In this document: positions 17,995 through 28,259 of the stretch, piece by piece
Layout: each line of letters opens with the position of its first letter
Position numbering within the stretch: the stretch's first letter is position 1
NCBI GenBank assembly: GCA_021404905.1
Contig: QWHN01000001.1
Location: forward strand, 130,162-194,161
From: Candidatus Saccharibacteria bacterium CPR2
GTDB lineage: Bacteria > Patescibacteriota > Saccharimonadia > Saccharimonadales > QWHN01
DNA length: 64,000 bases
Direction of reading: 5' to 3'
Position numbers and translations under genes: made by a program
The notes under the pieces: model-generated
The model's input: the letters and a program-made list of their open reading frames with translations, nothing else
Databases searched by the model: none
Told to the model about the DNA's origin: nothing

Positions 17995-18546
17995 CTATCC
18001 CTTATAGTTGTCAGGCTCTTCGTAATAATACGATTGTTCTATGCCTTTCATAAATACTTCGCGATCATCTATTTTGTCTGTTAATGCCGTACGTAGGAGC
18101 TCACGTAATTCAAGGTCGTTTACTGGGCTACGCTCCATAGCGTTAAAATAGTCATTCTTGTCAATTTTTTGCCAATCCACACATTGTTTTAGATTTTTCT
18201 TTAGAATTAAATCAAGCCAAATTCGTGTACTACGACCATTGCCCTCCATAAATGGGTGGGCAATATTCATCTCGACATACTTTTTGACGATTTCCTCAAA
18301 AGTTGTTTCAGGCATTTTCTCTATCTCAGACAAGCCTTTTCGTAAATAAATAGCAGATGCAAATGTAAAGCCACCTTTGCTAATGTTTTTTGAGCGAATT
18401 TTACCTGCGAACTTATATAATCCACCAAAAAGATATTTGTGAATTTGCTGTAAACCCTTTATTGTACCTACCTCAAAAGACGACAACTCTAGGCTACCAA
18501 AGAGTTTTATAGCTCGCTGTTTACTTATTTCGTCAATGTTTTGCAT
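17995..18546 (-). CDS. fic: Fic-family protein (AMPylase-type), probably class III with a C-terminal inhibitory helix
   Basis: Canonical Fic motif [12 protein letters not shown]. The C-terminal [10 protein letters not shown] fits the S-x-x-x-E inhibitory motif position. Confidence 0.9.
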
Positions 18547-18636
18547 GTCTATATTATAACAGAAAACGATAGAATTAACCCCTGTTAGATTGATCGATCA
18601 ATTCAGGAACCCAATCAGGTTTTTCACGACTCAATC

Positions 18637-18651
18637 TGGCTCCCGGGGCCG
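18637..18651 (-). repeat. Distal att core (displaced 3' end of tRNA-Asn)
   Basis: Exact 15-nt match to 28185-28199 in the same orientation. Identity stops on both sides. Confidence 0.8.
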
Positions 18652-18707
18652 AGACAAAGCACATCTTCAGCCGTGCTCAATGCAAGCATTGGCGCGCGGC
18701 TTTGATG

Positions 18708-18890
18708 ACCGAACCTCCGGTTCGATGTTCAGCTTCGCAGAACTTCAAAAGAAAAACCCAACCACAAGGGTCAGGCGTTTCTTTTGGCTCCCCCTACACT
18801 ACTCAATCAGCAACCTAACTTTGGAATACCAAGTGGATGGTGGCTACCTCAAAGATTTGACCAAACGGTTACGGGGCAGTACCATTTTAC
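18708..18890. repeat. Conserved non-coding left-end module, copy A (about 183 bp)
   Basis: Aligns with 19648-19830. The first 110 nt or so are near-identical (one 1-nt indel, one substitution); the rest is diverged. Contains the hairpins CGAACC-TCC-GGTTCG and CAAAAGAAA...TTTCTTTTG. Confidence 0.75.
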
Positions 18891-19147
18891 CCATATAACT
18901 GTGAATGCGTTCCTATTAGAGAAAAAATTATTACTTCACTGCCCTCTCTATAAAAAAGCGCTCGCAAATCGCCTGAAATATTTATGCTGTAATAGCCCGC
19001 GTACTTACCTCTTAACGGATGGAGTCTTAGGAGAGGATTGGTTTGATCGATCAAAAAAAGCTTTAAACGCTCATCAAATTGACTCTGAATTTTTGTCGGA
19101 AGTTTCTCGTATTGCTGTTTAAATTTTTTATCAAATCTAAGTATCAC
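18887..19147 (-). CDS. relE: Type II toxin, RelE/ParE superfamily
   Basis: 86 aa. LHPLRGKYAGYYSINISGDLRALFYREGSEVIIFSLIGTHSQLY fits the RelE/YafQ-type pattern. GTG start overlaps the antitoxin stop (GTGA). Confidence 0.85.
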   Translation of the reverse strand: MILRFDKKFKQQYEKLPTKIQSQFDERLKLFLIDQTNPLLRLHPLRGKYAGYYSINISGDLRALFYREGSEVIIFSLIGTHSQLYG

Positions 19148-19413
19148 GATTTAAGTTCTTTTAGAAAATCATCAACGTTATCGAAAGGCTTGCTTATCTC
19201 GCCATTTTCTCTGTCTCTTTCTACCTGCTCAATTAAACTTTCAAGCTTAGGTGTCATTTGTTCGGGAGCATATATCTCAATTCGTCTAGTAGCCACAATC
19301 TGCTTTAAGTAACTGTTAACTAAACTACTAAGTGTAATCCCAGCGTCACGTGCAAGCTGTTGAGCAGCTCTCTTAGTTTCGTCATCGGTCTTGATAGTAA
19401 TAACTTTACTCAT
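19144..19413 (-). CDS. relB: Type II antitoxin, RelB/DinJ family
   Basis: MSKVITIKTDDETKRAAQQLARDAGITLSSLVNSYLKQIV is a ribbon-helix-helix N-terminus. The track ORF extends to 19479, but the internal Met at 19413 gives the canonical N-terminus. Confidence 0.8.
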   Translation of the reverse strand: MSKVITIKTDDETKRAAQQLARDAGITLSSLVNSYLKQIVATRRIEIYAPEQMTPKLESLIEQVERDRENGEISKPFDNVDDFLKELKS

Positions 19414-19560
19414 AATACCGAGTATACACAAGGTATTACGTGTGTCAAGGAAAGCATGTATCTTTAATGGCTTCTTCATGACGACTGGTTCCTTGCAAGG
19501 ACGGTCCTTGCAAAACCAATTAACCAGTTTGGATTTGAATGGTAGTTATGTGATTTACGC

Positions 19561-19603
19561 CTCGCTTCATCTCTTGATAGTTATATATGGCACCGAGGCC
19601 GGA
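19561..19603 (+). pseudogene. Remnant of a recombinase 3' end plus a degenerate att-like core (right end of a decayed sibling element)
   Basis: ctcgcttcatctcttgatagttatatatggcaccgaggccgga aligns with 28158-28201, ctcgcttcgtgtcttgatagttctatatggctcccggggccgga. The encoded LASSLDSYIW compares with the recombinase C-terminus LASCLDSSIW. Weaker homology continues about 40 nt further upstream. Confidence 0.65.
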
Positions 19604-19647
19604 TATCGCGTTCACTCTATTCATACTCCTTCCTGCGCTCCTCGTCC

Positions 19648-19830
19648 ACCGAACCTCCGGTTCGATGTTCAGCTTCGCAGAACTTCAAAAGAAAAACCCA
19701 ACCACAAGGGGTCAGGCGTTTCTTTTGGCTCCCCCTACACCACTCAATCAGCAACCTATCTTTAGAGTATCAAGTTGATGGTAATTACCTCAAGGATTTG
19801 GCTAAACGACTAAGGTTACGGGGCAATTTA
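19648..19830. repeat. Conserved non-coding left-end module, copy B
   Basis: Direct repeat of 18708-18890; see that feature. Confidence 0.75.
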
Positions 19831-19860
19831 CTCGCTGGTGCAACTGTTTAGCGGACTAGT

Positions 19861-20130
19861 TTATAGCCCCTTGAACAGTTGTTCTAGCGAAATATCCAGC
19901 GATTTAGCAATCTTAAAGAGCGTTGATAGTGTTGGTTTACGGCGACCTTGCTCAATAAAGCCCATATGTGAGCGGTCAATTCCGCTGTTAGCCGCCAGTT
20001 TTTCTTGGCTCATACCATTAGAATTGCGAGCTTTTACGATACGCTTTCCTAGTTCAGTGTAGATTTGGTCAACAGATGATGCTTTCACATCTTTAGCGTA
20101 TTGATTACAATTGTAAGTAACCACTGACAA
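19861..20130 (-). CDS. XRE/Cro-CI-type HTH transcriptional regulator
   Basis: LGKRIVKARNSNGMSQEKLAANSGIDRSHMGFIEQGRRKPTLSTLFKIAKSLDISLEQLF is a canonical HTH_3 domain. The start is uncertain (TTG at 20130 or GTG at about 20088). Confidence 0.8.
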   Translation of the reverse strand: MSVVTYNCNQYAKDVKASSVDQIYTELGKRIVKARNSNGMSQEKLAANSGIDRSHMGFIEQGRRKPTLSTLFKIAKSLDISLEQLFKGL

Positions 20131-20137
20131 ATGTCAG
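20124..20137. promoter_or_regulatory. Candidate operator: perfect palindrome CTGACA-AA-TGTCAG in the XRE/ltp divergent region
   Basis: Read directly from the sequence. It sits between divergent genes and overlaps the longest XRE start; TATACAAT follows 9 nt downstream. Confidence 0.35.
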
Positions 20138-20171
20138 CAAAAGGTATACAATGTTATCAACTTAATATGTA

Positions 20172-20690
20172 ATGAAAGGTTTTGAAATGGCAGATAAAAA
20201 GCAAGGTAATTGGTTTGGAAGGCATAAAATCTTGACCGTCATTGGTGTAATTGTTCTTTTGGCAATTATCGGCGGTGCTGCTGGCGGCGGTAATACAAAT
20301 ACTTCAACAAGCAGTACGCCAACAAATAGCCAAACTACCCCAACTGCTGAAAGTAAGCCAGCTGCAAAAGAAGAACCTAAAGTACCTGCTGAATATAAAT
20401 CGGCATTAGCCCAAGCTGATACATATGCCAATCAACTACACCTGTCAAAGAAGGGTCTATACGACCAACTGGTTTCAGAGTATGGCGGTAAATTTAAGCC
20501 CGAAGCAGCACAATACGCAGTAGATAATGTTAAAGCTGACTGGAATGCCAACGCACTTGCCCAAGCAAAAACCTATCAAAATGATTTGCACCTATCGCCA
20601 GCTGGTATTCGTGACCAGTTAGTATCTGAACACGGCGGTCAATTTACGGCAGCAGAAGCCGATTACGCTGTTGCACACCTCAACGACTAG
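20172..20690 (+). CDS. Ltp-family surface protein (two Ltp repeats), membrane-anchored; phage-type superinfection-exclusion family
   Basis: TM anchor ILTVIGVIVLLAIIGGAAGGG. Two repeats: AEYKSALAQADTYANQLHLSKKGLYDQLVSEYGGKFKPEAAQYAV and NANALAQAKTYQNDLHLSPAGIRDQLVSEHGGQFTAAEADYAV. No lipobox Cys. The likely start is ATG 20187, preceded by an AAAGG SD. Confidence 0.8.
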   Translation: MKGFEMADKKQGNWFGRHKILTVIGVIVLLAIIGGAAGGGNTNTSTSSTPTNSQTTPTAESKPAAKEEPKVPAEYKSALAQADTYANQLHLSKKGLYDQLVSEYGGKFKPEAAQYAVDNVKADWNANALAQAKTYQNDLHLSPAGIRDQLVSEHGGQFTAAEADYAVAHLND

Positions 20691-20738
20691 GGGGGTAGTC
20701 GCCCTTCTTTTCTGTTATAGGTACTCCGCAGTGTAAAT

Positions 20739-20754
20739 GCCGAATTTTTTCGGC
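20739..20754. terminator. Bidirectional hairpin between convergent genes
   Basis: The palindrome GCCGAATTTTTTCGGC (GCCGAA + TTTT + TTCGGC) is flanked by A/T runs. Confidence 0.5.
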
Positions 20755-20782
20755 TGCAAAAATACCAAGCGTTTTTGGCGGC

Positions 20783-21424
20783 TTAATTTGATTGCTTTTT
20801 AGGCTTAGCTTTCTTTGCTTCTTCAATCAGTTTAGCTTCGCTAATCGCACATCTGTGAATTGGTCCATCGGCGTTTTCTCTATCAAATAGCAAGGACAGG
20901 TAGTGTCTGTCTTTACCGTTAAACCCAAAGATATTGACGATATTGAACCTACCCTCAGAAACTATTTTTGCTAACTCAGCTTCGTGTAAATCACCATCCA
21001 TATTGCAAAAGACGATTAAATGTCTATTTGCGGCATAGTTTTCGCCGTTAGACGATTTATCCTGAACACGGTCGGCAACGGTTTCAAGCAAGGTGTTATG
21101 CTTCTTGTTTCTATGTGTAGCAAGTGTCTGTTCCACATACACTGCTTCGCTTTCGCCCCGAACTAAACCGCCATCATCATTGTCTAGCATTTTGGCAACT
21201 CGCAAACTATCACCAGTCTTGTCCATAAGTGCAATGGCGTGGATGATAAGCCCAATCCATTCCCGTTTGCTCATATTTGTGTCAGTTATCTTGTCGCTAT
21301 CCTCAATCCAGTTTGGGTCATTTAAGCCAGGCAGCACGAACAATTTAAATGCTAGGTATGGGTCAATGGCAATGCCTTGTGCCTTTATGGGTACGCCTTT
21401 GGGTTTCCAAGTGTAGTCAGTCAT
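20783..21424 (-). CDS. Hypothetical protein, last gene of the element cargo operon
   Basis: 213-aa ORF. Its start (ATG 21424-21422) overlaps the stop of the upstream gene by 1 nt. Lys-rich C-terminal tail; no motif recognised. Confidence 0.6.
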   Translation of the reverse strand: MTDYTWKPKGVPIKAQGIAIDPYLAFKLFVLPGLNDPNWIEDSDKITDTNMSKREWIGLIIHAIALMDKTGDSLRVAKMLDNDDGGLVRGESEAVYVEQTLATHRNKKHNTLLETVADRVQDKSSNGENYAANRHLIVFCNMDGDLHEAELAKIVSEGRFNIVNIFGFNGKDRHYLSLLFDRENADGPIHRCAISEAKLIEEAKKAKPKKQSN

Positions 21425-21903
21425 TAGCCAACTTCAAACTCAACTACTGGCAAGCCTGATGATGCCATTTCAGTTTCAATGTGCTGTTGCATATTTTTGG
21501 CATCCTCAAATGATACGCCTCTTGCAGCAGTCCGTTCACGCAACAAATCATCGCCAATTTTCAAATGTACGATACGGTCAGCGTCTAATACCACTGTACC
21601 GAAGACAGGTTCGCCAGGTTTTACTTTGACCCGCTCTTTGGTCAATCGTGTCATAGTTTCACCAATTTCAGGTGTCCACGGTGTTTGGCAAACATAGTCG
21701 GCTTCGTCTTTGGTCAGTAGCGGAAACACCAGTTTGTCCATATCCTTAGCGTCAGCAAGATGTTCAATCAGTGTACTTTTGCCAGTGCAAGTACCGCCAA
21801 GCACCACAACTCGCTCGTCTTTGTACTGGTCTAAAACTGATTGAAGCTCGGCTGCCTGTCGCTGTTTTGCAACTTCTAACGACTGCTCACGCTCTGACAT
21901 CAC
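21424..21903 (-). CDS. Small P-loop NTPase / kinase-like protein
   Basis: Walker A motif VVVLGGTCTGKSTL. At 159 aa it has the size and layout of small nucleotide/nucleoside-kinase-like P-loop proteins. Confidence 0.65.
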   Translation of the reverse strand: MMSEREQSLEVAKQRQAAELQSVLDQYKDERVVVLGGTCTGKSTLIEHLADAKDMDKLVFPLLTKDEADYVCQTPWTPEIGETMTRLTKERVKVKPGEPVFGTVVLDADRIVHLKIGDDLLRERTAARGVSFEDAKNMQQHIETEMASSGLPVVEFEVG

Positions 21904-22663
21904 TTAATCTCTCAATGTATTCGGAAAATCCATCCTCAGTTACTAAGCCAATAACTTCGTTGGAAGCGGCTTTTAGTTCATCCACGGCGTTACCCATCGC
22001 CACTTTATGCTTTACCGCATTGAACAAATGAATATCGTTATGACCGTCACCAACACCAATAGTATCTTCTTGTTTGATTTTTAGTATTTTGAGTAGCTCG
22101 GCAATAGCGTGTTCTTTCGTGGCGTTACGATTTGTAACGTGAATATCATTAAAGCCAGCTCGTTGAGCAACAACCAAAGTAACCGCAACGCCGTCTATTT
22201 TTGATAGCTCAGCTACAATTTGGGGTGCAATCTCTTGTGGCACGAATATCAGTTCAAAGAAATATACTGGTTCGGTAATTTGTAAGTTAGCTACATCAAG
22301 ACCACCATTAAGGTAAGCGTCCTCATCGTTATCGTTATAAAGCACCTTATATTTTGGGTATTTTTTTGCAATGGCTAACGTAGCTGCTAGGTCAGCTTCG
22401 TCTATGTCACACTGCCACATAATTTCACCTGTTACTGGATTGCAAATCTGTGTTCCAGCCGAGATGATACAAGGGTCAACCAGCGACAAACCTTTTAATA
22501 CTGGCTCAGCAAATGTCCACACTCTGCCAGTAGCAGCACAGGCATAGTAGTCTTCCTCTAACTTGCGAATAGCTTGAACTAACCGCTCACTCGGCACTTT
22601 TTGTGAAGGTGAATTGATAGCAGTACCATCAATATCAAAAATCAGTGCTTTGTATTTTCTCAC
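21887..22663 (-). CDS. Cof-type HAD-IIB phosphatase
   Basis: Motif I FDIDGTAI, a cap-domain-sized insert, and motif IV GVGDGHNDIHLF. Confidence 0.85.
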   Translation of the reverse strand: MRKYKALIFDIDGTAINSPSQKVPSERLVQAIRKLEEDYYACAATGRVWTFAEPVLKGLSLVDPCIISAGTQICNPVTGEIMWQCDIDEADLAATLAIAKKYPKYKVLYNDNDEDAYLNGGLDVANLQITEPVYFFELIFVPQEIAPQIVAELSKIDGVAVTLVVAQRAGFNDIHVTNRNATKEHAIAELLKILKIKQEDTIGVGDGHNDIHLFNAVKHKVAMGNAVDELKAASNEVIGLVTEDGFSEYIERLSDVRA

Positions 22664-23115
22664 TTTCCTGCCTCAAAAATCTTTGCCTGAATAGCTTTGA
22701 GCTGTTCAGCTGACATTTGTGGACCTTCGGCTGTCGTAATATAGCCTTTATATTCTTCGGTAAATTCAGTATGGTCAGACCAAACATCGGTTTTGGCTGC
22801 TAACTCGCCGTGAAGCGGTATCAGTTTTGCGTGAACATAAGCAACGCCTGTGCCTTCAAACACCAAAGCAACCCTTGGCACACCCAGTGCTTCTTCAAGT
22901 ATCCTTGCTACATTCTTTGCTGCCAGCATCAAGTCTGAGTAGGCTTTATCGTCTAGGGTAAAAATATAGTCGCCGATGTTGGTTTTAGGTATTAGAACGG
23001 TAAATCCTGGCGTATTTGGAAATGGCGTTAAAAATGCCAGGTGCTTATCATCTTCCCAGACTTTGTAGCTATCCATTTCACCACGAACAATTTTGTCAAA
23101 AATAGTGTCACTCAT
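22660..23115 (-). CDS. HIT-like domain protein with a degenerate histidine triad
   Basis: The N-terminal IFDKIVRGEMDSYKVWEDDKHLAFL...GFTVLIPK matches the HIT fold. The triad position reads YVHAKLIPL instead of H-x-H-x-H-x-x. Confidence 0.65.
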   Translation of the reverse strand: MSDTIFDKIVRGEMDSYKVWEDDKHLAFLTPFPNTPGFTVLIPKTNIGDYIFTLDDKAYSDLMLAAKNVARILEEALGVPRVALVFEGTGVAYVHAKLIPLHGELAAKTDVWSDHTEFTEEYKGYITTAEGPQMSAEQLKAIQAKIFEAGK

Positions 23116-23501
23116 TACGCTAAGTTCTCGTCTAAGAATTGTTTTAGTGCGTTCATATCTTCTTTCGTGTGGTCATAGAAATATGTGGTAATACCAACCG
23201 ACTGAGCAGTCTTAGCCGCTTCTGCATTGTGTTCAAAATAGACAACATCTTCTGCTTTAAGTCCATATTTTTCAAGAAGTATTTTGAAGTATAGCGGGTC
23301 AGTCTTTTCAGGGTCGTGTTTAAGCGTAAATACCTCATACGGCACTTGGTCTAGCTTGAAATGTTTAAATTGCTCGTCGTTTGCACTCGTTAAAACCAAC
23401 TTTTTATTAGGGTAACCTTCTAACAGCTTGTGCATCGGTTCAAGGATGCTGCCATCTTCTAACACCAATCCATTTATAGCGTCTACTAAAATCGTTTTCA
23501 T
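23115..23501 (-). CDS. Small HAD-like protein (motif I D-x-I instead of D-x-D)
   Basis: 128 aa. The N-terminal ILVDAINGLV sits at the position of HAD motif I, and VVYFEHNAEAAKTAQSVGI resembles the motif III/IV region. First gene of the 5-gene operon. Confidence 0.5.
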   Translation of the reverse strand: MKTILVDAINGLVLEDGSILEPMHKLLEGYPNKKLVLTSANDEQFKHFKLDQVPYEVFTLKHDPEKTDPLYFKILLEKYGLKAEDVVYFEHNAEAAKTAQSVGITTYFYDHTKEDMNALKQFLDENLA

Positions 23502-23518
23502 TACTTCTTCACTCCTTC

Positions 23519-23701
23519 CTATTTGTGTTCCATAAATTTCACTAAATCTTCACGCTTGTATCGGCGTAAACCACGCTCGCCAATTCGCACTGCTCTCAAA
23601 ATACCTTTCTTGTCCCAGGCACGAAGTGTGTTGGGATGGACTTTTAGCAGCTCGCTGGCTTGCTTTAGGGTTAGTAATTCTTGCAATGGTTCTTGTGACA
23701 T
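23519..23701 (-). CDS. Excisionase/MerR-type HTH DNA-binding protein (candidate recombination directionality factor)
   Basis: 60 aa. LLTLKQASELLKVHPNTLRAWDKKGILRAVRIGERGLRRYKREDL is an HTH_17-type pattern. Confidence 0.75.
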   Translation of the reverse strand: MSQEPLQELLTLKQASELLKVHPNTLRAWDKKGILRAVRIGERGLRRYKREDLVKFMEHK

Positions 23702-23762
23702 ATTTACTCACTCTTGATAACATTATTATACAGCCATAAAGATGTAGTGAAAGTAGTAAAAG

Positions 23763-24788
23763 GTGTTACACGGCGAAGAAAAAATCTGGTTTCTGGTAAA
23801 TACGCTTGATAAAGAGCGTAAGGTCACGCCCAAGGGCAAGCCCGTGGCATTGCACCCAATGAATGACCTAAACAATCACTACTCCAAATTGGATTTTATT
23901 GACCTGTTTGAAACGCTTGAACAAGACAAAGTCGCCAAGTTACTTAACCAGCTACCGACTGACCAAACCTACGGCAAGTACCAAATCCAGCTATTACCAG
24001 GATTTGATGGCTATGTTGAAAAGCTAGAAGAAAACCCAGAATATCTTGAATGGTCAGGCAAAAAGCCCAAACCTAAAAACTACTTTAGCCCAGAACGGCG
24101 TGTTGACTTTTCTAAGCCCAAAGAAGAAAACAAGGATAAGTACATATCGGTTGGTCAGATTGAAGAATTGATGAAAATGCCCAAGGATGAACGGGCAAAG
24201 ATTGAAAAGAATAGCCTGACCCAAGAACACCTTAACGACATTACAGAGTTTCAAGATGGTTTGGCAAAAGCCAGCAAAGCACTTAAACAAAAGATGGATG
24301 CAGCAGTTAAAGACCTAGTACCTAAAATTAACTTCCCCGATGTTATGAAAACCGACCACATAGCCATAACTCCACCACCAAACTATCAGGCACAATCCGT
24401 CGGGCTTTTAAAGCAGCTTGTTGAGCAGCAAAAGCAGCAAGACAAGCAGGATAATAAAGCTGTGCTAAAAATAACCTACACCAGCTCACGCCAGGTTATG
24501 TTGAACGGCGTATTTCAACTTGCAAGACCATCCCTCAATGGTACAAATGACCTTGTTTTCAACCATCTGTACCAAAACCCAGGCAAGTCATTTTCCAAGC
24601 AGCAGTTAGAAGCAGCTATCGGACAAAAAATTAGCAAGACCCTACATAAGATAGTTGAAAACCTTGGCTTTAAAGGTGATTTAGCCAAAGCCTTCTTTTC
24701 GGTATCAAAAAATAACATTGTATTTAGAAACCCGATTACCCGTGATGAACTAAACGATATGGGCTTGGGCAATATAAAGTTAAGCTGA
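23763..24788 (+). CDS. Hypothetical protein (GTG start); Lys/Gln-rich centre, possible C-terminal winged helix
   Basis: 341-aa ORF divergent from the Xis-like gene; no motif recognised. Confidence 0.6.
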   Translation: MLHGEEKIWFLVNTLDKERKVTPKGKPVALHPMNDLNNHYSKLDFIDLFETLEQDKVAKLLNQLPTDQTYGKYQIQLLPGFDGYVEKLEENPEYLEWSGKKPKPKNYFSPERRVDFSKPKEENKDKYISVGQIEELMKMPKDERAKIEKNSLTQEHLNDITEFQDGLAKASKALKQKMDAAVKDLVPKINFPDVMKTDHIAITPPPNYQAQSVGLLKQLVEQQKQQDKQDNKAVLKITYTSSRQVMLNGVFQLARPSLNGTNDLVFNHLYQNPGKSFSKQQLEAAIGQKISKTLHKIVENLGFKGDLAKAFFSVSKNNIVFRNPITRDELNDMGLGNIKLS

Positions 24789-24860
24789 TAACCATTCCCA
24801 AATGTTCCCATCTTTGCCCGCTCAGGCGAGCAATTGCTTCTATTTAGTTAAGTTGGCTGT

Positions 24861-25031
24861 ATGGATAAGCAGCCACCAAGTAGCACAGCAAAAGCCAGCC
24901 AAGAAAAACCTTGGTCTGATGCTGAACTGCGGCGTGTTGCCCGTGTGTTTGACTTGCTCATAAGGATAGACCAGCGTAAACGAGGAAAAGGTAATGAAGA
25001 AAAACCAGTCAGCAAGCCCAAAACTAGTTAA
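24861..25031 (+). CDS. Possible 56-aa ORF (below the ORF-track cutoff)
   Basis: My translation is MDKQPPSSTAKASQEKPWSDAELRRVARVFDLLIRIDQRKRGKGNEEKPVSKPKTS. It overlaps the next ORF by 38 nt, so only one of the two starts may be real. Confidence 0.25.
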   Translation: MDKQPPSSTAKASQEKPWSDAELRRVARVFDLLIRIDQRKRGKGNEEKPVSKPKTS

Positions 25032-25269
25032 GAAGTGCAACGACTGTAAGTTAATTGAAGCAAAAGCTATCATCTGGAATAACGAAGCTGAAACGCTCAG
25101 CAAAATTATAGACGAAATACAAGGCTTTATGCCGACCTACGGTATTGATGTAAAACTTATCAACCGAATTAAGGAAAGCTGTGAAGAATTGCTTGAAGAA
25201 AGATTGAACTTTCTAGATGGCTACTTAGATTTTTGGCAGGAATGTACTGATGAGCATCACCGAAATTAA
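24994..25269 (+). CDS. Hypothetical small protein
   Basis: 91-aa ORF with an AGGAAAAGG SD upstream. Overlaps the next gene by 20 nt. Confidence 0.45.
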   Translation: MKKNQSASPKLVKKCNDCKLIEAKAIIWNNEAETLSKIIDEIQGFMPTYGIDVKLINRIKESCEELLEERLNFLDGYLDFWQECTDEHHRN

Positions 25270-25549
25270 CATTACGGCCGTCAAGCCAAAAGACGGGCTT
25301 GTTGGCTTTGCCAGCTTCGTGTTTGCTGGTGCGTTGTACTGCGGCTCTGTCGGCATATTTAGCCGTCCTAGCGGCGGTTATAGGCTCGTATACCCTACCA
25401 AGCTAGTTGCAGGTCGTCAGCTAGATGTGTACCACCCAATAACGGGTGCTGTCGGCAGACAGATTGAAGAAGCTGTAATAACTAAATTTGAAGAAGTAAT
25501 GAACAATGCTCGGAATAGACACAGTAGTGCTGAACTTTTATCCCAATGA
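25250..25549 (+). CDS. SpoVG-like protein
   Basis: ITEINITAVKPKDGLVGFASFVFAGALYCGSVGIFSRPSGGYRLVYPTK...YHPIT parallels the SpoVG N-terminal pattern (..KLKAFASVT.D..F.V.DI.V..G..G.FVAMPSRK...HPI). Confidence 0.65.
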   Translation: MSITEINITAVKPKDGLVGFASFVFAGALYCGSVGIFSRPSGGYRLVYPTKLVAGRQLDVYHPITGAVGRQIEEAVITKFEEVMNNARNRHSSAELLSQ

Positions 25550-26660
25550 GTTTGCCATATTGCGACCTTGGGATTTTACGCCCAACACAAACCGCATTAC
25601 GGCTATTGAGCCGAAGGATTTGGGAAAAGGACGCTATATGCAAGCAACACGCAACCCAAACAAGCAAGAAACAGCCCAGACAGGTTATCTACCGTACCTG
25701 ACCTTTTATAAAGGCATACGGGCTGGCGGCGTTACCACGGGCTTGCGAGTGCAGTTTTCTGTGCCAAAGCTGATTTACGGCAATAACTTTGATGAACTGG
25801 TTGAAGCTGACCTAGACCAAGTCTATGAGCGGCTGTTTGAAGGTTTAAAGTTCTATGGCGTACGGTTCTTCAAGGGCATAGAAACGGTCAAAAATGCCAA
25901 GGTAGCCACAATCCACTTCGCCAAGAACTTTCCGCTCAGTAACTATATGACCGCTCACGAAGCGATTACCGAAATACAGAAGTGCGATGTGACGACCTGG
26001 CGTGATGTAAGCCAAAGCGATTATGTGAACAATGGACACGGCTTTAAGACGCACTCCAAGCACTACGAGCTGGCTTTTTACGACAAGATAGCCGAGTACC
26101 ACAAAGGCAAACGCAACCAGCCTGTGTTTGATACAGACTTGCAGTTGCAGATGGATTTGTTTGGCAACAATCAAATTGTTCAGCCTTTTGAAGTGCTTCG
26201 TATGGAAGCTCGTCTAAATAACCAAAGAATTATCAAATCAACACTCAAAAAGGCTGGCTTTGAAGGTGCAGAAGTTACGCTTGCGGCACTCTGCAAAAAG
26301 GATATTTCACAAGCCGTCTTGAAGCAGCAGCTTGCCGAGCTATATTCACGCTACCCAAAAATCAGCGATGCCAAAGCACCTGATTTACACGCCCTATTTA
26401 GCCAGCTGTATGTTCAAAATCCAGGTCGCAATATGACCACACTACTTTCGGCTGTCGGGTTACGAGCCTTAAATCAAGAACACGGCACACGAAGGCTTAA
26501 AGACATAGTTGGTCCACGGGGCAGCCCAGCACTGCTCCGCCAAGCCAAAAAGATAAACCACGAATTAGCTTACAGGTTTGAGCAACCAGAGGTATTTCAA
26601 ATGCTAGATGAGCAGCTGGATAGGTTCTTGCCCGTTAAGTTAGCTAACTTCGTAAATTGA
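25506..26660 (+). CDS. Putative replication initiation protein (phage/plasmid gene II/X or CRI-like); function uncertain
   Basis: 384-aa ORF. The N-terminus MLGIDTVVLNFYP.. resembles the MIDxLxLxxP start of rolling-circle/filamentous-phage initiators. It sits in an operon with the SpoVG-like gene directly upstream of the recombinase. Confidence 0.4.
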   Translation: MLGIDTVVLNFYPNEFAILRPWDFTPNTNRITAIEPKDLGKGRYMQATRNPNKQETAQTGYLPYLTFYKGIRAGGVTTGLRVQFSVPKLIYGNNFDELVEADLDQVYERLFEGLKFYGVRFFKGIETVKNAKVATIHFAKNFPLSNYMTAHEAITEIQKCDVTTWRDVSQSDYVNNGHGFKTHSKHYELAFYDKIAEYHKGKRNQPVFDTDLQLQMDLFGNNQIVQPFEVLRMEARLNNQRIIKSTLKKAGFEGAEVTLAALCKKDISQAVLKQQLAELYSRYPKISDAKAPDLHALFSQLYVQNPGRNMTTLLSAVGLRALNQEHGTRRLKDIVGPRGSPALLRQAKKINHELAYRFEQPEVFQMLDEQLDRFLPVKLANFVN

Positions 26661-26693
26661 TGACAAATGTAAGTTATAATAGGAGTAAATACT

Positions 26694-28226
26694 ATGAAAA
26701 AAGCCGTAATACTAGCAAGAGTATCAACTAAGAAACAAGAGCAAGAAGGCTTATCGCTGGAAGAAATTCAGCTCCCAGCAATGCGTGAATACGCTGAGCT
26801 ACACGACTTTGAAATTGTAAAGGAATATGTGTTTAGCGAAAGTGCTGATATGGGCATACGCAAGAAGTTCAACGAAATGATGGACTATGTAAAAAAGCAC
26901 AAAGACATTGAAGCCATTATAGCGTTTCGTGTTGACCGAGCTACCCGCAACTTTGCCGACCACGTTGCTATGGATAACCTGCGGACCGAGTACAACAAGG
27001 AATTACATTTTGTTCACGATAGGCTAACTATAACTGCTCGCTCGGTTGGGCGTGATATTACCGACTGGGACACTAAAGTATACCTAGCCAAACAAATCAT
27101 AAATCGTCTTAAAGAAGATGCCCATAACTCACGCTACGCCAAGCTGCGTGATGGCGAGCTGCCAGGTATTGCACCGTATGGCTATAAGAACGAAGCGATT
27201 GATAAACGCAACAAAACTGTTGTGCCTGTGCCCTTCAAAGCCAATATCGCCCTCAAAACATTTGAGCTGTACGCTACTGGTACATTTTCGTACAAATCCT
27301 TAGCCAAACGAATGAAGACTGACTACGGTGTTGATATGCCTTGGAGCAGCTTCGGCACGATACTCAAAAATCGCTTCTACATTGGCGAGATTTACGATAA
27401 GGCTACGGACAACTACTATCAGCATCACTACGAACAATTCGTGCCATACGAGCTGTTTTGGCAGGTTCAGGATGTAATTGCTGGTCACGGCAAGAAAAAG
27501 ATTAAGTACAAAGGTTTGCCGTTTACTTACCGTGGCTTGCTGCACTGTAAAAAATGCGGCTGTGCCATCACGCCCGAAGCCAAGCACAAGAAACAGAAGA
27601 ACGGTAACAAGCACAGCTACGCCTATTACCACTGCACGGGCAAAAGCAAAGCCTACGGCAAACACAAGGACACTGAATGGCTTGAAGAAAAGGAACTGGA
27701 TGGCATACTCGCCCAGCTGTTTGACGACTGCAAAATACCAGAAAACGAATTACCACGCCTTGAACAAATACTAAAGGAAGCCCACGGCGGCAAGGTTGTA
27801 TTCAATAAAGAACAGGTTAAATATCACAATACCGAAATTTCAAAGCTACAAAATCGGATTGAAGTAGCCTATGAGGATAAGTGCGATGGTAGTATTACCC
27901 AAGCAGAATATGACAAGAAGCGTTCTAAATGGCGTCAGCAGCAGAAGCTACACGAACGCAAATTGGCACGGCTCTCGGAAGTTGATGAACAATACTATGT
28001 TACGGTTGCCTATCTGTTAGAAATAGCTGCCCGTGGTAGCGAGCTATTTATAGCTGCTGAACCAAACGAAAAGCGAGAGTTAATTGGTTTGCTTGGTCAG
28101 AACCTGCTTTTGGATGGTAAATCCGTGCAAATAACCCTTTACAAACCGTTTGATACTCTCGCTTCGTGTCTTGATAGTTCTATATGGCTCCCGGGGCCGG
28201 ACTCGAACCGGCAACCTCGAAGTTAA
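26694..28226 (+). CDS. Large serine recombinase (resolvase catalytic domain, recombinase domain, zinc ribbon, coiled coil)
   Basis: AVILARVSTKKQ holds the catalytic Ser. AFRVDRATRN is present. Zinc ribbon CKKCGCAITPE...YYHCTG. AGGAG SD upstream. The last 14 codons run antisense through the att core and tRNA-Asn. Confidence 0.93.
   Translation: MKKAVILARVSTKKQEQEGLSLEEIQLPAMREYAELHDFEIVKEYVFSESADMGIRKKFNEMMDYVKKHKDIEAIIAFRVDRATRNFADHVAMDNLRTEYNKELHFVHDRLTITARSVGRDITDWDTKVYLAKQIINRLKEDAHNSRYAKLRDGELPGIAPYGYKNEAIDKRNKTVVPVPFKANIALKTFELYATGTFSYKSLAKRMKTDYGVDMPWSSFGTILKNRFYIGEIYDKATDNYYQHHYEQFVPYELFWQVQDVIAGHGKKKIKYKGLPFTYRGLLHCKKCGCAITPEAKHKKQKNGNKHSYAYYHCTGKSKAYGKHKDTEWLEEKELDGILAQLFDDCKIPENELPRLEQILKEAHGGKVVFNKEQVKYHNTEISKLQNRIEVAYEDKCDGSITQAEYDKKRSKWRQQQKLHERKLARLSEVDEQYYVTVAYLLEIAARGSELFIAAEPNEKRELIGLLGQNLLLDGKSVQITLYKPFDTLASCLDSSIWLPGPDSNRQPRS
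28185..28199 (-). repeat. Proximal att core (3' end of the intact tRNA-Asn)
   Basis: Identical to 18637-18651. Confidence 0.8.
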
Positions 28227-28259
28227 CAGCTTCTTGCTCCACCATTGAGCTACCCGGGA
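28185..28259 (-). tRNA. tRNA-Asn (GUU), CCA encoded
   Basis: Manual fold of TCCCGGGTAGCTCAATGGTGGAGCAAGAAGCTGTTAACTTCGAGGTTGCCGGTTCGAGTCCGGCCCCGGGAGCCA. It has a 7-bp acceptor stem with U1-A72 and G73, D stem GCTC/GAGC, anticodon loop CU-GUU-AA and T arm GCCGG-TTCGAGT-CCGGC. There is one A27:G43 mismatch. Confidence 0.92.

Follow-up and report, generated by a model that had tools for sequence, protein, structure and literature searches.

A probable decayed, relBE-carrying relative of a large serine recombinase element at tRNA-Asn in Candidatus Saccharibacteria bacterium CPR2

The stretch analysed here (the window) comprises 64,000 nt of Candidatus Saccharibacteria bacterium CPR2, namely positions 130,162-194,161 of the forward strand of contig QWHN01000001.1 in assembly GCA_021404905.1. 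At its sole tRNA gene, tRNA-Asn(gtt), lies an intact integrative element with a large serine recombinase (LSR), named E2, and to the left of E2 a mini-element, E1, which has only relE and relB between its ends and no recombination or transfer genes. With a probability that we put at about 0.7, E1 is a decayed, non-autonomous relative of E2, and both belong to an LSR family which uses a TGGCTCC core and has its attP site inside the recombinase open reading frame (ORF). Sibling loci (numbered L) were fetched by way of recombinase homologues, which are numbered P0001-P0120. The left arm of an element is called P', the arm at the recombinase end P and the 5' block in front of P' is called F; the spacers before F1 and F2 are called b and i. 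Coordinates are those of the window and a slash within a sequence marks a joint. The features on which the argument depends are the following.

18785-19594, about 0.8 kb: E1, the probable decayed and recombinase-less relative of E2
18785-18898, plus strand: attL1 core TGGCTCC and P' arm of E1, a putative detached recombinase 3' coding segment (WLPLHYSISNLTLEYQVDGGYLKDLTKRLRGSTILPI, then stop)
18887-19147, minus strand: relE-type toxin gene, 86 amino acids, YafQ/ParE fold family (PF15738, 2.2e-7; PF05016, 3.6e-5)
19144-19479, minus strand: relB antitoxin gene, longest ORF 111 amino acids (Pfam RelB PF04221, 2.2e-6)
19490-19513: two direct copies of TCCTTGCAA upstream of relB
19561-19587, plus strand: P arm of E1, a 27-nt remnant of a recombinase 3' end which reaches up to the core; peptide LASSLDSYI
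19588-19603, plus strand: mutated core TGGCACC and decayed tRNA-Asn 3' fragment (TGGCACCGAGGCCGGA), right side of attR1
19726-28191, plus strand: E2, 8.47-kb intact integrative element at tRNA-Asn
19726-19851, plus strand: attL2 core TGGCTCC and P' arm of E2, the putative intact detached recombinase tail (WLPLHHSISNLSLEYQVDGNYLKDLAKRLRLRGNLLAGATV, then stop)
26694-28226, plus strand: large serine recombinase gene, 510 amino acids as integrated; the ORF enters tRNA-Asn from the left
28185-28259, minus strand: tRNA-Asn(gtt); the attR2 core TGGCTCC is 28185-28191

E1 is flanked on both sides by attachment (att) sites of the family type. On the left attL1 reads F1/TGGCTCC/P'1 at 18785, and on the right attR1 reads P1/TGGCACC/tRNA fragment at 19561-19603. 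Positions 19561-19604 match 28158-28201 with 38 identities in 44 positions and one gap (blastn E 7e-8), and the local score of 56 is far above that of 500 shuffles (17.9 +/- 2.2, maximum 28). This confirms the recombinase 3' remnant which an earlier note on this DNA had proposed at 19561-19603. The 27 nt of the P remnant alone match E2 at 24 positions. No recombinase-derived sequence was found upstream of 19561 (score 19, about chance), and tblastn recovered the remnant peptide LASSLDSYIW and nothing more. The middle core, TGGCACCGAGGCCGG at 19588-19602, is mutated and reads as it had been quoted. Moreover, the decayed tRNA fragment differs from tRNA-Asn by two substitutions and one deletion, and the P' arm of E1 is corrupted at its end relative to the siblings by a 6-nt deletion and a 5-nt insertion.

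The relE-relB pair which had been noticed earlier is present and both genes are intact, with relB upstream of relE and a 4-nt overlap, which is the layout of type II RelBE modules. An alternative start of relB at 19413 gives a protein of 89 amino acids. On the same strand a sigma-70-like promoter is found at 19448-19421 with 11 of 12 matches, and the TCCTTGCAA pair is possibly the relB operator. A 908-nt contig carrying relBE occurs in six samples. The arrangement of E1 was seen in several samples, in which the assembly contigs break 30 nt into F, as is expected for a repeat at k = 31. The strain is present in SRR8954568, SRR8556133, SRR7663064 and SRR8109491, among other samples.

Attachment core, element boundaries and the DNA between the elements

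The boundaries of the two elements were derived from the sibling loci. At 11 of these, homology to the left end starts exactly at TGGCTCC/CCCTACA (L001, L004, L008, L014, L034, L037, L040 and L041 are among them), and at the right ends the recombinase 3' end is followed by TGGCTCC and then by the tRNA (P/TGGCTCC/tRNA). The 7-nt TGGCTCC is common to attL and attR in E2 and in eight sibling pairs, six of which are exact; the exceptions are L034, where attR reads TGGCTCA, and L040, where attR lies 1 nt from the coordinate entered. The att flanks are unrelated between hosts, and a short site with a small common core is what is expected of LSR attL and attR sites, which are hybrids of attP and attB without long identical repeats. 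As no tRNA repeat reaching 9 nt is present on the left of L001 and L004, the shared core is only TGGCTCC, which includes the antisense of the tRNA-Asn CCA end. Judged from these comparisons, the LSR family appears to recombine at the 7-nt TGGCTCC and not at a 15-nt tRNA repeat, so that the 15/16-nt tRNA piece which had been taken as the att core gives way to the 7 nt that the siblings share.

The DNA of L034 is about 92% identical to E2 across 19726-28190 and unrelated outside both points, its homology to the window ending at 19725/19726, which sets E2 at 19726-28191. Applied to E1, the same reasoning sets its left limit at the TGGCTCC of 18785 and its right limit at the mutated core, TGGCACC, of 19588-19594. 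The mini-element had been drawn at 18652-19605; its limits are now 18785-19594, and the large element begins at 19726.

Both left ends lie within a direct repeat (18708-18890 and 19648-19830) whose first 63 nt are identical and are followed by a 1-nt indel and by about 100 nt of approximately 80% identity. This repeat of about 180 nt is real, as there are only two copies in the window and none is expected from shuffles. The module that it forms seems on comparison to be composite, its 5' 77 nt being F and its 3' part of about 115 nt being the P' arm; in all the siblings with the exact left start only the 3' half is matched. That the similarities are due to chance, or that the module is a generic genomic repeat, has a negligible probability given the shuffle controls, the presence of only two copies in the window and the occurrence of the 3' half at the left ends of 11 other loci, and only at the left ends of sibling elements. 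The two outcomes which the earlier note had named as refuting it, a chance similarity of the remnant and a widespread repeat, are thus both contradicted. Of the conserved left-end module of the earlier note, the repeat and the 3' half as an element end therefore stand, whereas F is in no sibling and the 3' half appears to be recombinase coding sequence. The parts of the module and the neighbouring DNA are as follows.

18637-18651, plus strand: outer direct repeat, exact 15-nt antisense copy of the tRNA-Asn 3' end; not a sibling boundary
18637-18784: unit 1, 15 + 56 + 77 nt
18652-18707: spacer b, 56 nt, unique, between the tRNA fragment and F1
18708-18784, minus strand: F1, 77 nt, putative B (non-element) arm of attL1
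19588-19725: unit 2, 16 + 44 + 78 nt
19604-19647: spacer i, 44 nt, unique
19648-19725, minus strand: F2, 77/78-nt terminator-bearing second copy, putative B arm of attL2

F1 and F2 are about 99% identical (98.7% over 78 nt) whereas the adjoining P' arms are about 80% identical. F is absent from all sibling elements, including the L034 element, and the siblings diverge exactly at this point. A 22-mer from F gave no matches in exact-pattern scans of IMG/VR, the GTDB representative genomes and JGI metagenomes. Read on the tRNA strand, F contains a terminator-like hairpin which abuts the core (-33.6 kcal/mol, z = -3.3); it sits where the tRNA 3' end would abut, and several sibling left flanks also have hairpins at this place. 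Considering its absence from the siblings, the contrast between 99% and 80% and the position of the hairpin, F has the character of a non-element (B) arm, present at two separate attL sites, and not that of element DNA.

Two other interpretations of the module were rejected. As an independent small gene starting at ATG 18725 it would carry a frameshifting indel between the copies, upstream of the conserved part, and the siblings conserve only the part from TGGCTCC onward. As a structured RNA it has no counterpart either: an Rfam scan of the window at the gathering threshold found no structured RNA other than the tRNA, and a permissive scan of 18500-20000 gave only sub-threshold matches to ctRNA_p42d (E 1.6-3.3), which coincide with the F terminator hairpin. 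Since no family exceeds the threshold there, the module is not a known RNA family. Some ORFs which cross the core on their way from host flank to P' tail have been annotated as hypothetical proteins (window 18590-18898; P0128, P0142 and P0143), and these are read-through artefacts of attL sites.

The earlier note had placed two related elements in tandem at the same tRNA. A decayed, recombinase-less relative which has kept both its ends and relBE is probably there, but E1 and E2 are not head-to-tail: 19588-19725 lies between them, and the two cores are 131 nt apart, a distance taken up by what is left of the tRNA fragment, by spacer i and by F2. The second copy of the module had been said to follow the degenerate core immediately, when in fact it starts 45 nt later. 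Each element is thus preceded by a unit of 138-148 nt, in which a piece of the tRNA 3' end is followed by a unique spacer and then by F. Spacers b and i have no similarity above chance, and spacer b has no match in the fetched loci except in contigs of the same strain. The frame of the recombinase remnant remains open over 97 codons from 19561 to 19851, crossing the decayed tRNA piece, spacer i and F2 before it reaches the P'2 tail; in the first copy the corresponding frame is broken, and the open frame is probably a coincidence.

An alternative which we regard as unlikely takes the model of the earlier note literally. In it the elements are head-to-tail, the tRNA pieces of 15/16 nt at 18637, 19588 and 28185 serve as functional att cores, the spacer, F and P' would all be element DNA, the mini-element would be 18652-19605 and the mutated middle core would fuse both elements into one mobile unit; in a composite variant, each unit is an LSR element inserted beside a remnant of another element, and this whole was once moved by a different recombinase via a 15-17-nt core. 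The products expected from a 15-nt core are ...GTTCTATA/TGGCTCCCGGGGCCG/AGACAAAGC and CACGACTCAATC/TGGCTCCCGGGGCCGG/ACTCG. The outer repeat is indeed exact, the 15-mer TGGCTCCCGGGGCCG occurring at 18637-18651 and at 28185-28199, where it is the tRNA-Asn 3' end, and nowhere else; the order core, spacer, F and P' is found twice, and islands with 23-26-nt tRNA-Asn repeats lie in tandem beside the siblings at L040, L008 and L014. However, the siblings, L034 included, start at TGGCTCC/P' and have neither F nor spacer, the two spacers are unrelated although the F copies are about 99% identical, and the sequence to the right of the core at 18637 is unlike a P' arm. Moreover, no second LSR was found in the window and no recombinase other than the LSR in or beside the region, where tyrosine integrases were not searched for.

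The islands at L040, L008 and L014 indicate that a second element type with a longer core at tRNA-Asn is real. With low confidence, the units could be the scars of such an element type using a 15-17-nt tRNA-Asn core, and our working guess is that at least one composite of a unit and an LSR element was once moved via that core. At L040 (11484-13001) a 1.4-kb island lies between the recombinase and tRNA-Asn and is bounded by a 26-nt tRNA-Asn repeat; it has genes for an antitoxin, a ParE-like toxin and a metallophosphatase. The sequence of its left end (..ATTTTAGGCTCGCTTTA..) is found again to the right of the recombinase in L008 (7894-8000) and L014 (10086-10200).

An empty site was sought in contigs of the same species. 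L015, from a 98% identical strain, is collinear up to the tRNA 3' end, where other DNA begins, and is not an empty site; the other contigs break at the tRNA or inside F. A comparison of the tRNA flank of L015 with the left flanks of L001 and L014 gave short motifs by eye only, without BLAST support. The occupant of L015 (10426-20288) comprises a 460-nt non-coding stretch, ABC-F, APH, a 426-amino-acid serine recombinase, terminase and a ParB-methylase. A third occupant of the same tRNA, in L016-L018, is a sibling element with different cargo including ApeA/HEPN.

To the left of the outer tRNA fragment lies a Fic-domain gene (17995-18546, minus strand), and a Fic-domain gene is likewise present to the left of the element in L001. 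Between the fragment and the start of this gene is a perfect 14-nt palindrome, ATTGATCGATCAAT at 18589-18602, which may be an operator.

A recombinase gene that appears to span its attachment site

The recombinase of E2 has the Pfam domains PF00239 (Resolvase), PF07508 (Recombinase) and PF13408 (Zn_ribbon_recom), all above the cut-offs, and a model of the homologue P0069 has long helices (residues 340-444) between the zinc-ribbon strands, which is the coiled-coil insertion of the LSR architecture. With these domains and a short shared att core, E2 would by its sequence belong with the LSR integrative elements. The nearest relatives of the recombinase (68-99% identity) are in Candidatus Saccharimonadales metagenome-assembled genomes (MAGs), while proteins from Dehalococcoidia and Chloroflexota are among the homologues at about 47% identity. 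No relatives were found in viral contigs. The integrated gene closes with 12 codons (LPGPDSNRQPRS) that lie antisense to the 3' end of tRNA-Asn.

Read in the frame of the recombinase, the P' arm codes for a conserved C-terminal tail of about 40 amino acids (WLPLHxSISNLSLEYQVDGNYLKDLAKRLGLR...), and on both sides of the core the TGG is the same Trp codon. In 13 distinct P' arms the differences at the three codon positions of codons 11-32, which lie outside any plausible att half-site, number 546/371/911. The ratio of synonymous to non-synonymous differing codons is 517/638 in the recombinase frame and 100/1038 and 90/1050 in the other frames. When P is joined to P', the resulting recombinase exceeds the integrated copy by about 28 residues, which places attP inside the ORF. 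As far as the sequences tell, integration swaps the tail of about 40 amino acids for antisense-tRNA codons. Thus on the free circle the recombinase gene would run through the core into a P' tail of about 40 codons, and after integration into the tRNA-Asn 3' end at TGGCTCC, a step which is supported by comparison with the siblings, the tail would be left at the far left end and the recombinase would end in about 12 antisense-tRNA codons.

A likely example of the full-length gene was found in L043 (Logan SRR12022142_181). This contig of 9,569 nt has ends overlapping by 8 nt, and its terminal partial ORFs join in frame to give a canonical methylase (N6_Mtase and TaqI_C) fused to a helix-turn-helix (HTH) domain. 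It lacks a tRNA and has the family backbone (SpoVG, a Rep-sized gene and HTH_17). Its recombinase has 527 amino acids, and the tail LPLKDLFLNQELEFDMSISEMKIFMENLGLS aligns to that of the window without gaps. L043 is therefore likely to be a circular relative of about 9.56 kb which carries the complete recombinase gene. A circle of the window's own element was looked for with a degenerate pattern for the P/P' junction in JGI metagenomes and IMG/VR, with 0 matches, a weak negative since the known JGI contig L031 escaped the scan as well and the collection is therefore a subset.

The endings of the homologues are in agreement with such a split. Among 120 homologues of the recombinase with 45-90% identity, from the Candidate Phyla Radiation (CPR) and Chloroflexota, at least 67 end in W and an antisense-tRNA peptide (WL[PR]xxDSNxxP), 32 more stop 2-3 residues past the conserved W, and about 14 have other long tails. 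The antisense-tRNA endings imply that the C-termini in the databases are artefactual for this recombinase family. Among the other types of tail after the conserved W are LTTIEEVITVIK.., LPLLDMLRVKYYDAVV.. and LPLLDAIRTGEF.. (L034 11492-11560; P0125, P0131, P0133, P0130, P0140 and P0124), which are probably P' arms that belong to other sub-families and were joined on in tandem arrays. The recombinase of L034 continues into one of these tails and not into the tRNA. At L041 (156-797) about 220 C-terminal residues of a distant recombinase (30% identity, cut by the contig start) end on a type-A P' arm at L041:789, and by its sequence this upstream recombinase seems to borrow the tail of the next element.

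The tail might then be more than a by-product of integration. A speculative and rather doubtful proposal is that in this CPR/Chloroflexota family it is a built-in sensor of state: the full-length enzyme would exist only on the circle or upstream of another P' arm, the integrated copy would be altered in activity or directionality, and remnants like E1, with a P' arm that looks intact and with att half-sites, could re-complete a neighbour's recombinase or ride out via attL1 x attR2, with relBE holding them in place. If this were true, such remnants would not be inert debris.

The remaining genes of E2 encode an XRE HTH protein, an Ltp-like lipoprotein, cargo resembling HAD, HIT and kinase proteins, HTH_17, SpoVG and a Rep of the Phage_CRI type. 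The HTH_17 gene (23519-23701) is a candidate excisionase or directionality factor. The cargo at 20172-20690 includes a double Ltp-type surface lipoprotein, from a family which in phages has been connected with superinfection exclusion. At 21424-23501 several small-molecule enzymes follow one another, namely an AAA_28-like kinase, a Cof-type HAD protein, a HIT protein and a further HAD-like protein.

Origin, decay and possible mobility of the mini-element

The P' arms are informative as to the origin of E1. P'1 and P'2 are about 80% identical with many synonymous changes, and P'1 is about as far from P'2 as it is from the arms of other genomes. This near equidistance indicates descent of E1 from a separate sibling rather than copying from E2; the ancestor of E1 would have been such an element which lost its interior. 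It could be argued that E1 was never independent, and that a local duplication or gene conversion copied the attL region (F and P') and the recombinase end, between which a relBE cassette was put. The identity of about 99% between F1 and F2 is what would remain after a recent duplication or conversion, and no sibling bearing relBE was found. Nevertheless we consider this history quite improbable, because P'1 and P'2 differ by about 20%, mostly at third codon positions, when a recent copy should match as closely as F1 and F2 do; the P remnant has diverged too (24/27), and independent junctions of a remnant with P' occur in L031, L033 and L041.

In these three loci decayed upstream elements fused to a P' arm have arisen independently, which suggests that accretion followed by decay is recurrent in this recombinase family. 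There the P' arm, beginning at TGGCTCC, follows directly after the recombinase remnant, giving true P/P' joints (L031:1374, L033:1624 and L041:789).

If E1 is indeed a decayed relative of E2, the two would have different prospects. E2, with its recombinase and both its sites (19726 and 28185) intact, presumably excises alone, a process in which the HTH_17 protein may be the directionality factor. E1 would be stranded on its own, as it has no recombinase and its core is changed, and it could not excise alone if the crossover includes the mutated T. It had been suggested that the mutated middle core locks the two elements together; since E2 keeps both its own sites, only E1 would be affected. 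Recombination between attL1 (18785) and attR2 (28185) could nonetheless release E1 and E2 together. E1 may in this way be a decayed remnant, possibly mobilizable in cis, within a tandem array of islands, as its sequence and setting suggest. relBE may hold the remnant by post-segregational killing, and retention of E1 by addiction, which the earlier note had put forward, is a reasonable inference.

These events would give distinct products. The predicted joint of the E2 circle is ...GATAGTTCTATA/TGGCTCC/CCCTACACCACTC and the predicted empty site of E2 is ...GGCGTTTCTTT/TGGCTCC/CGGGGCCGGACTC. For the composite circle from attL1 x attR2 the prediction is ...GTTCTATA/TGGCTCC/CCCTACACTACTC, and a hypothetical circle of E1 alone would read ...GTTATATA/TGGC(A or T)CC/CCCTACACTACTC.

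Several observations weigh against this account of E1 and E2. Neither an exact protein look-up nor tblastn against 42 loci found relBE in a full-length sibling, which the earlier note had suggested looking for, so that relBE could be a later insertion and not a retained gene pair. The exact 15-nt outer repeat and the duplicated F are not accounted for by LSR recombination alone, and the perfect outer tRNA fragment with a decayed inner one is a poor fit to simple sequential insertion. In the AlphaFold model of the L043 recombinase the body is confident and the tail has a predicted local distance difference test (pLDDT) score of 36-59, which gives no structural support for a function of the tail. 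Lastly, the reconstructed attP has only a weak dyad symmetry (about 8/20, with about 5/20 by chance), which does not fix the crossover dinucleotide, so that the T-to-A change in the TGGCACC of E1 may or may not block recombination.

Meaning and comparison with known systems

E1 exposes how the family is built. It points to a large and mostly unannotated group of LSRs in Saccharibacteria, other CPR bacteria and Chloroflexota with attP inside the gene, in which annotations give the true C-terminus of the recombinase as separate hypothetical proteins, located at the opposite island end. The att architecture corrects the boundaries of the elements and offers exact, testable attP and attB sites for recombinases that come from bacteria not easily manipulated. 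Moreover, tRNA-Asn in Saccharimonadales genomes gathers layered arrays of at least two element types.

Type II RelBE modules are typical stabilisers of islands. The pair in E1 is like RelBE and YafQ-DinJ modules in that the antitoxin gene is upstream of, and overlaps, the gene for a toxin with a RelE/ParE fold, as predicted from Pfam matches that exceed the threshold. No close homologue of the pair was found in sibling elements.

Integrases with attP inside their ORF are known from the split integrase genes of the SSV (Sulfolobus spindle-shaped virus) type, which encode tyrosine integrases. In myxophage Mx8 (intP/intX) attP also lies inside the integrase ORF, the C-terminus of the integrated form differs, and experiments showed that this alters the activity (PMC6070905). 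The elements described here are like Mx8 and SSV in that an attP within the ORF gives a different C-terminus after integration, and unlike them in that the enzyme is a serine and not a tyrosine recombinase.

Cis-mobilizable elements (CIMEs) and their accretion are known from the integrative and conjugative elements and integrative and mobilizable elements (ICEs/IMEs) of streptococci, where tyrosine integrases act and the cores at all three sites are identical. CIMEs and accretion-mobilization have been reviewed (PMC5704250). E1 resembles CIMEs in being short, flanked by att sites of its neighbour's type, devoid of recombination genes and in tandem at a tRNA hot spot. It differs from them in the serine recombinase, in the mutated inner site and in the extra DNA between E1 and E2, which are not linked by a direct attP-like P/P' joint.

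The ssrA islands of Dehalococcoides are the closest precedent. They carry the serine recombinase DsiB at the island edge, with an ORF which invariably extends past the att site, either into the target RNA gene or into the next island, and they form tandem arrays at one RNA gene (McMurdie et al. 2011, PMC3146451). Fifteen of these islands lack an integration module and were read as cis-mobilizable or fixed remnants; the C-termini of DsiB are divergent, and it was proposed that the recombinase is maybe complete only on the circle or beside an island which supplies the 3' fragment (PMC3146451). Going by this published description, the elements of the window are like DsiB islands in having an LSR at the edge, an ORF crossing the att site and tandem arrays at one RNA gene. 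They are unlike them in their target, a 7-nt core at the CCA/acceptor end of tRNA-Asn where the ssrA islands have a 20-bp repeat at the T-loop of tmRNA, in having a single recombinase without a DsiA partner and in their Saccharimonadales (CPR) hosts. They differ moreover in the protein-level conservation of the detached 3' fragment and in the likely circular relative with the complete gene, and the question left open in 2011, whether DsiB is complete only on the circle, is now directly testable. Set beside these systems, E1 alone is a known kind of decay, and the split recombinase gene and the corrected att architecture are the more interesting by-product of its analysis.

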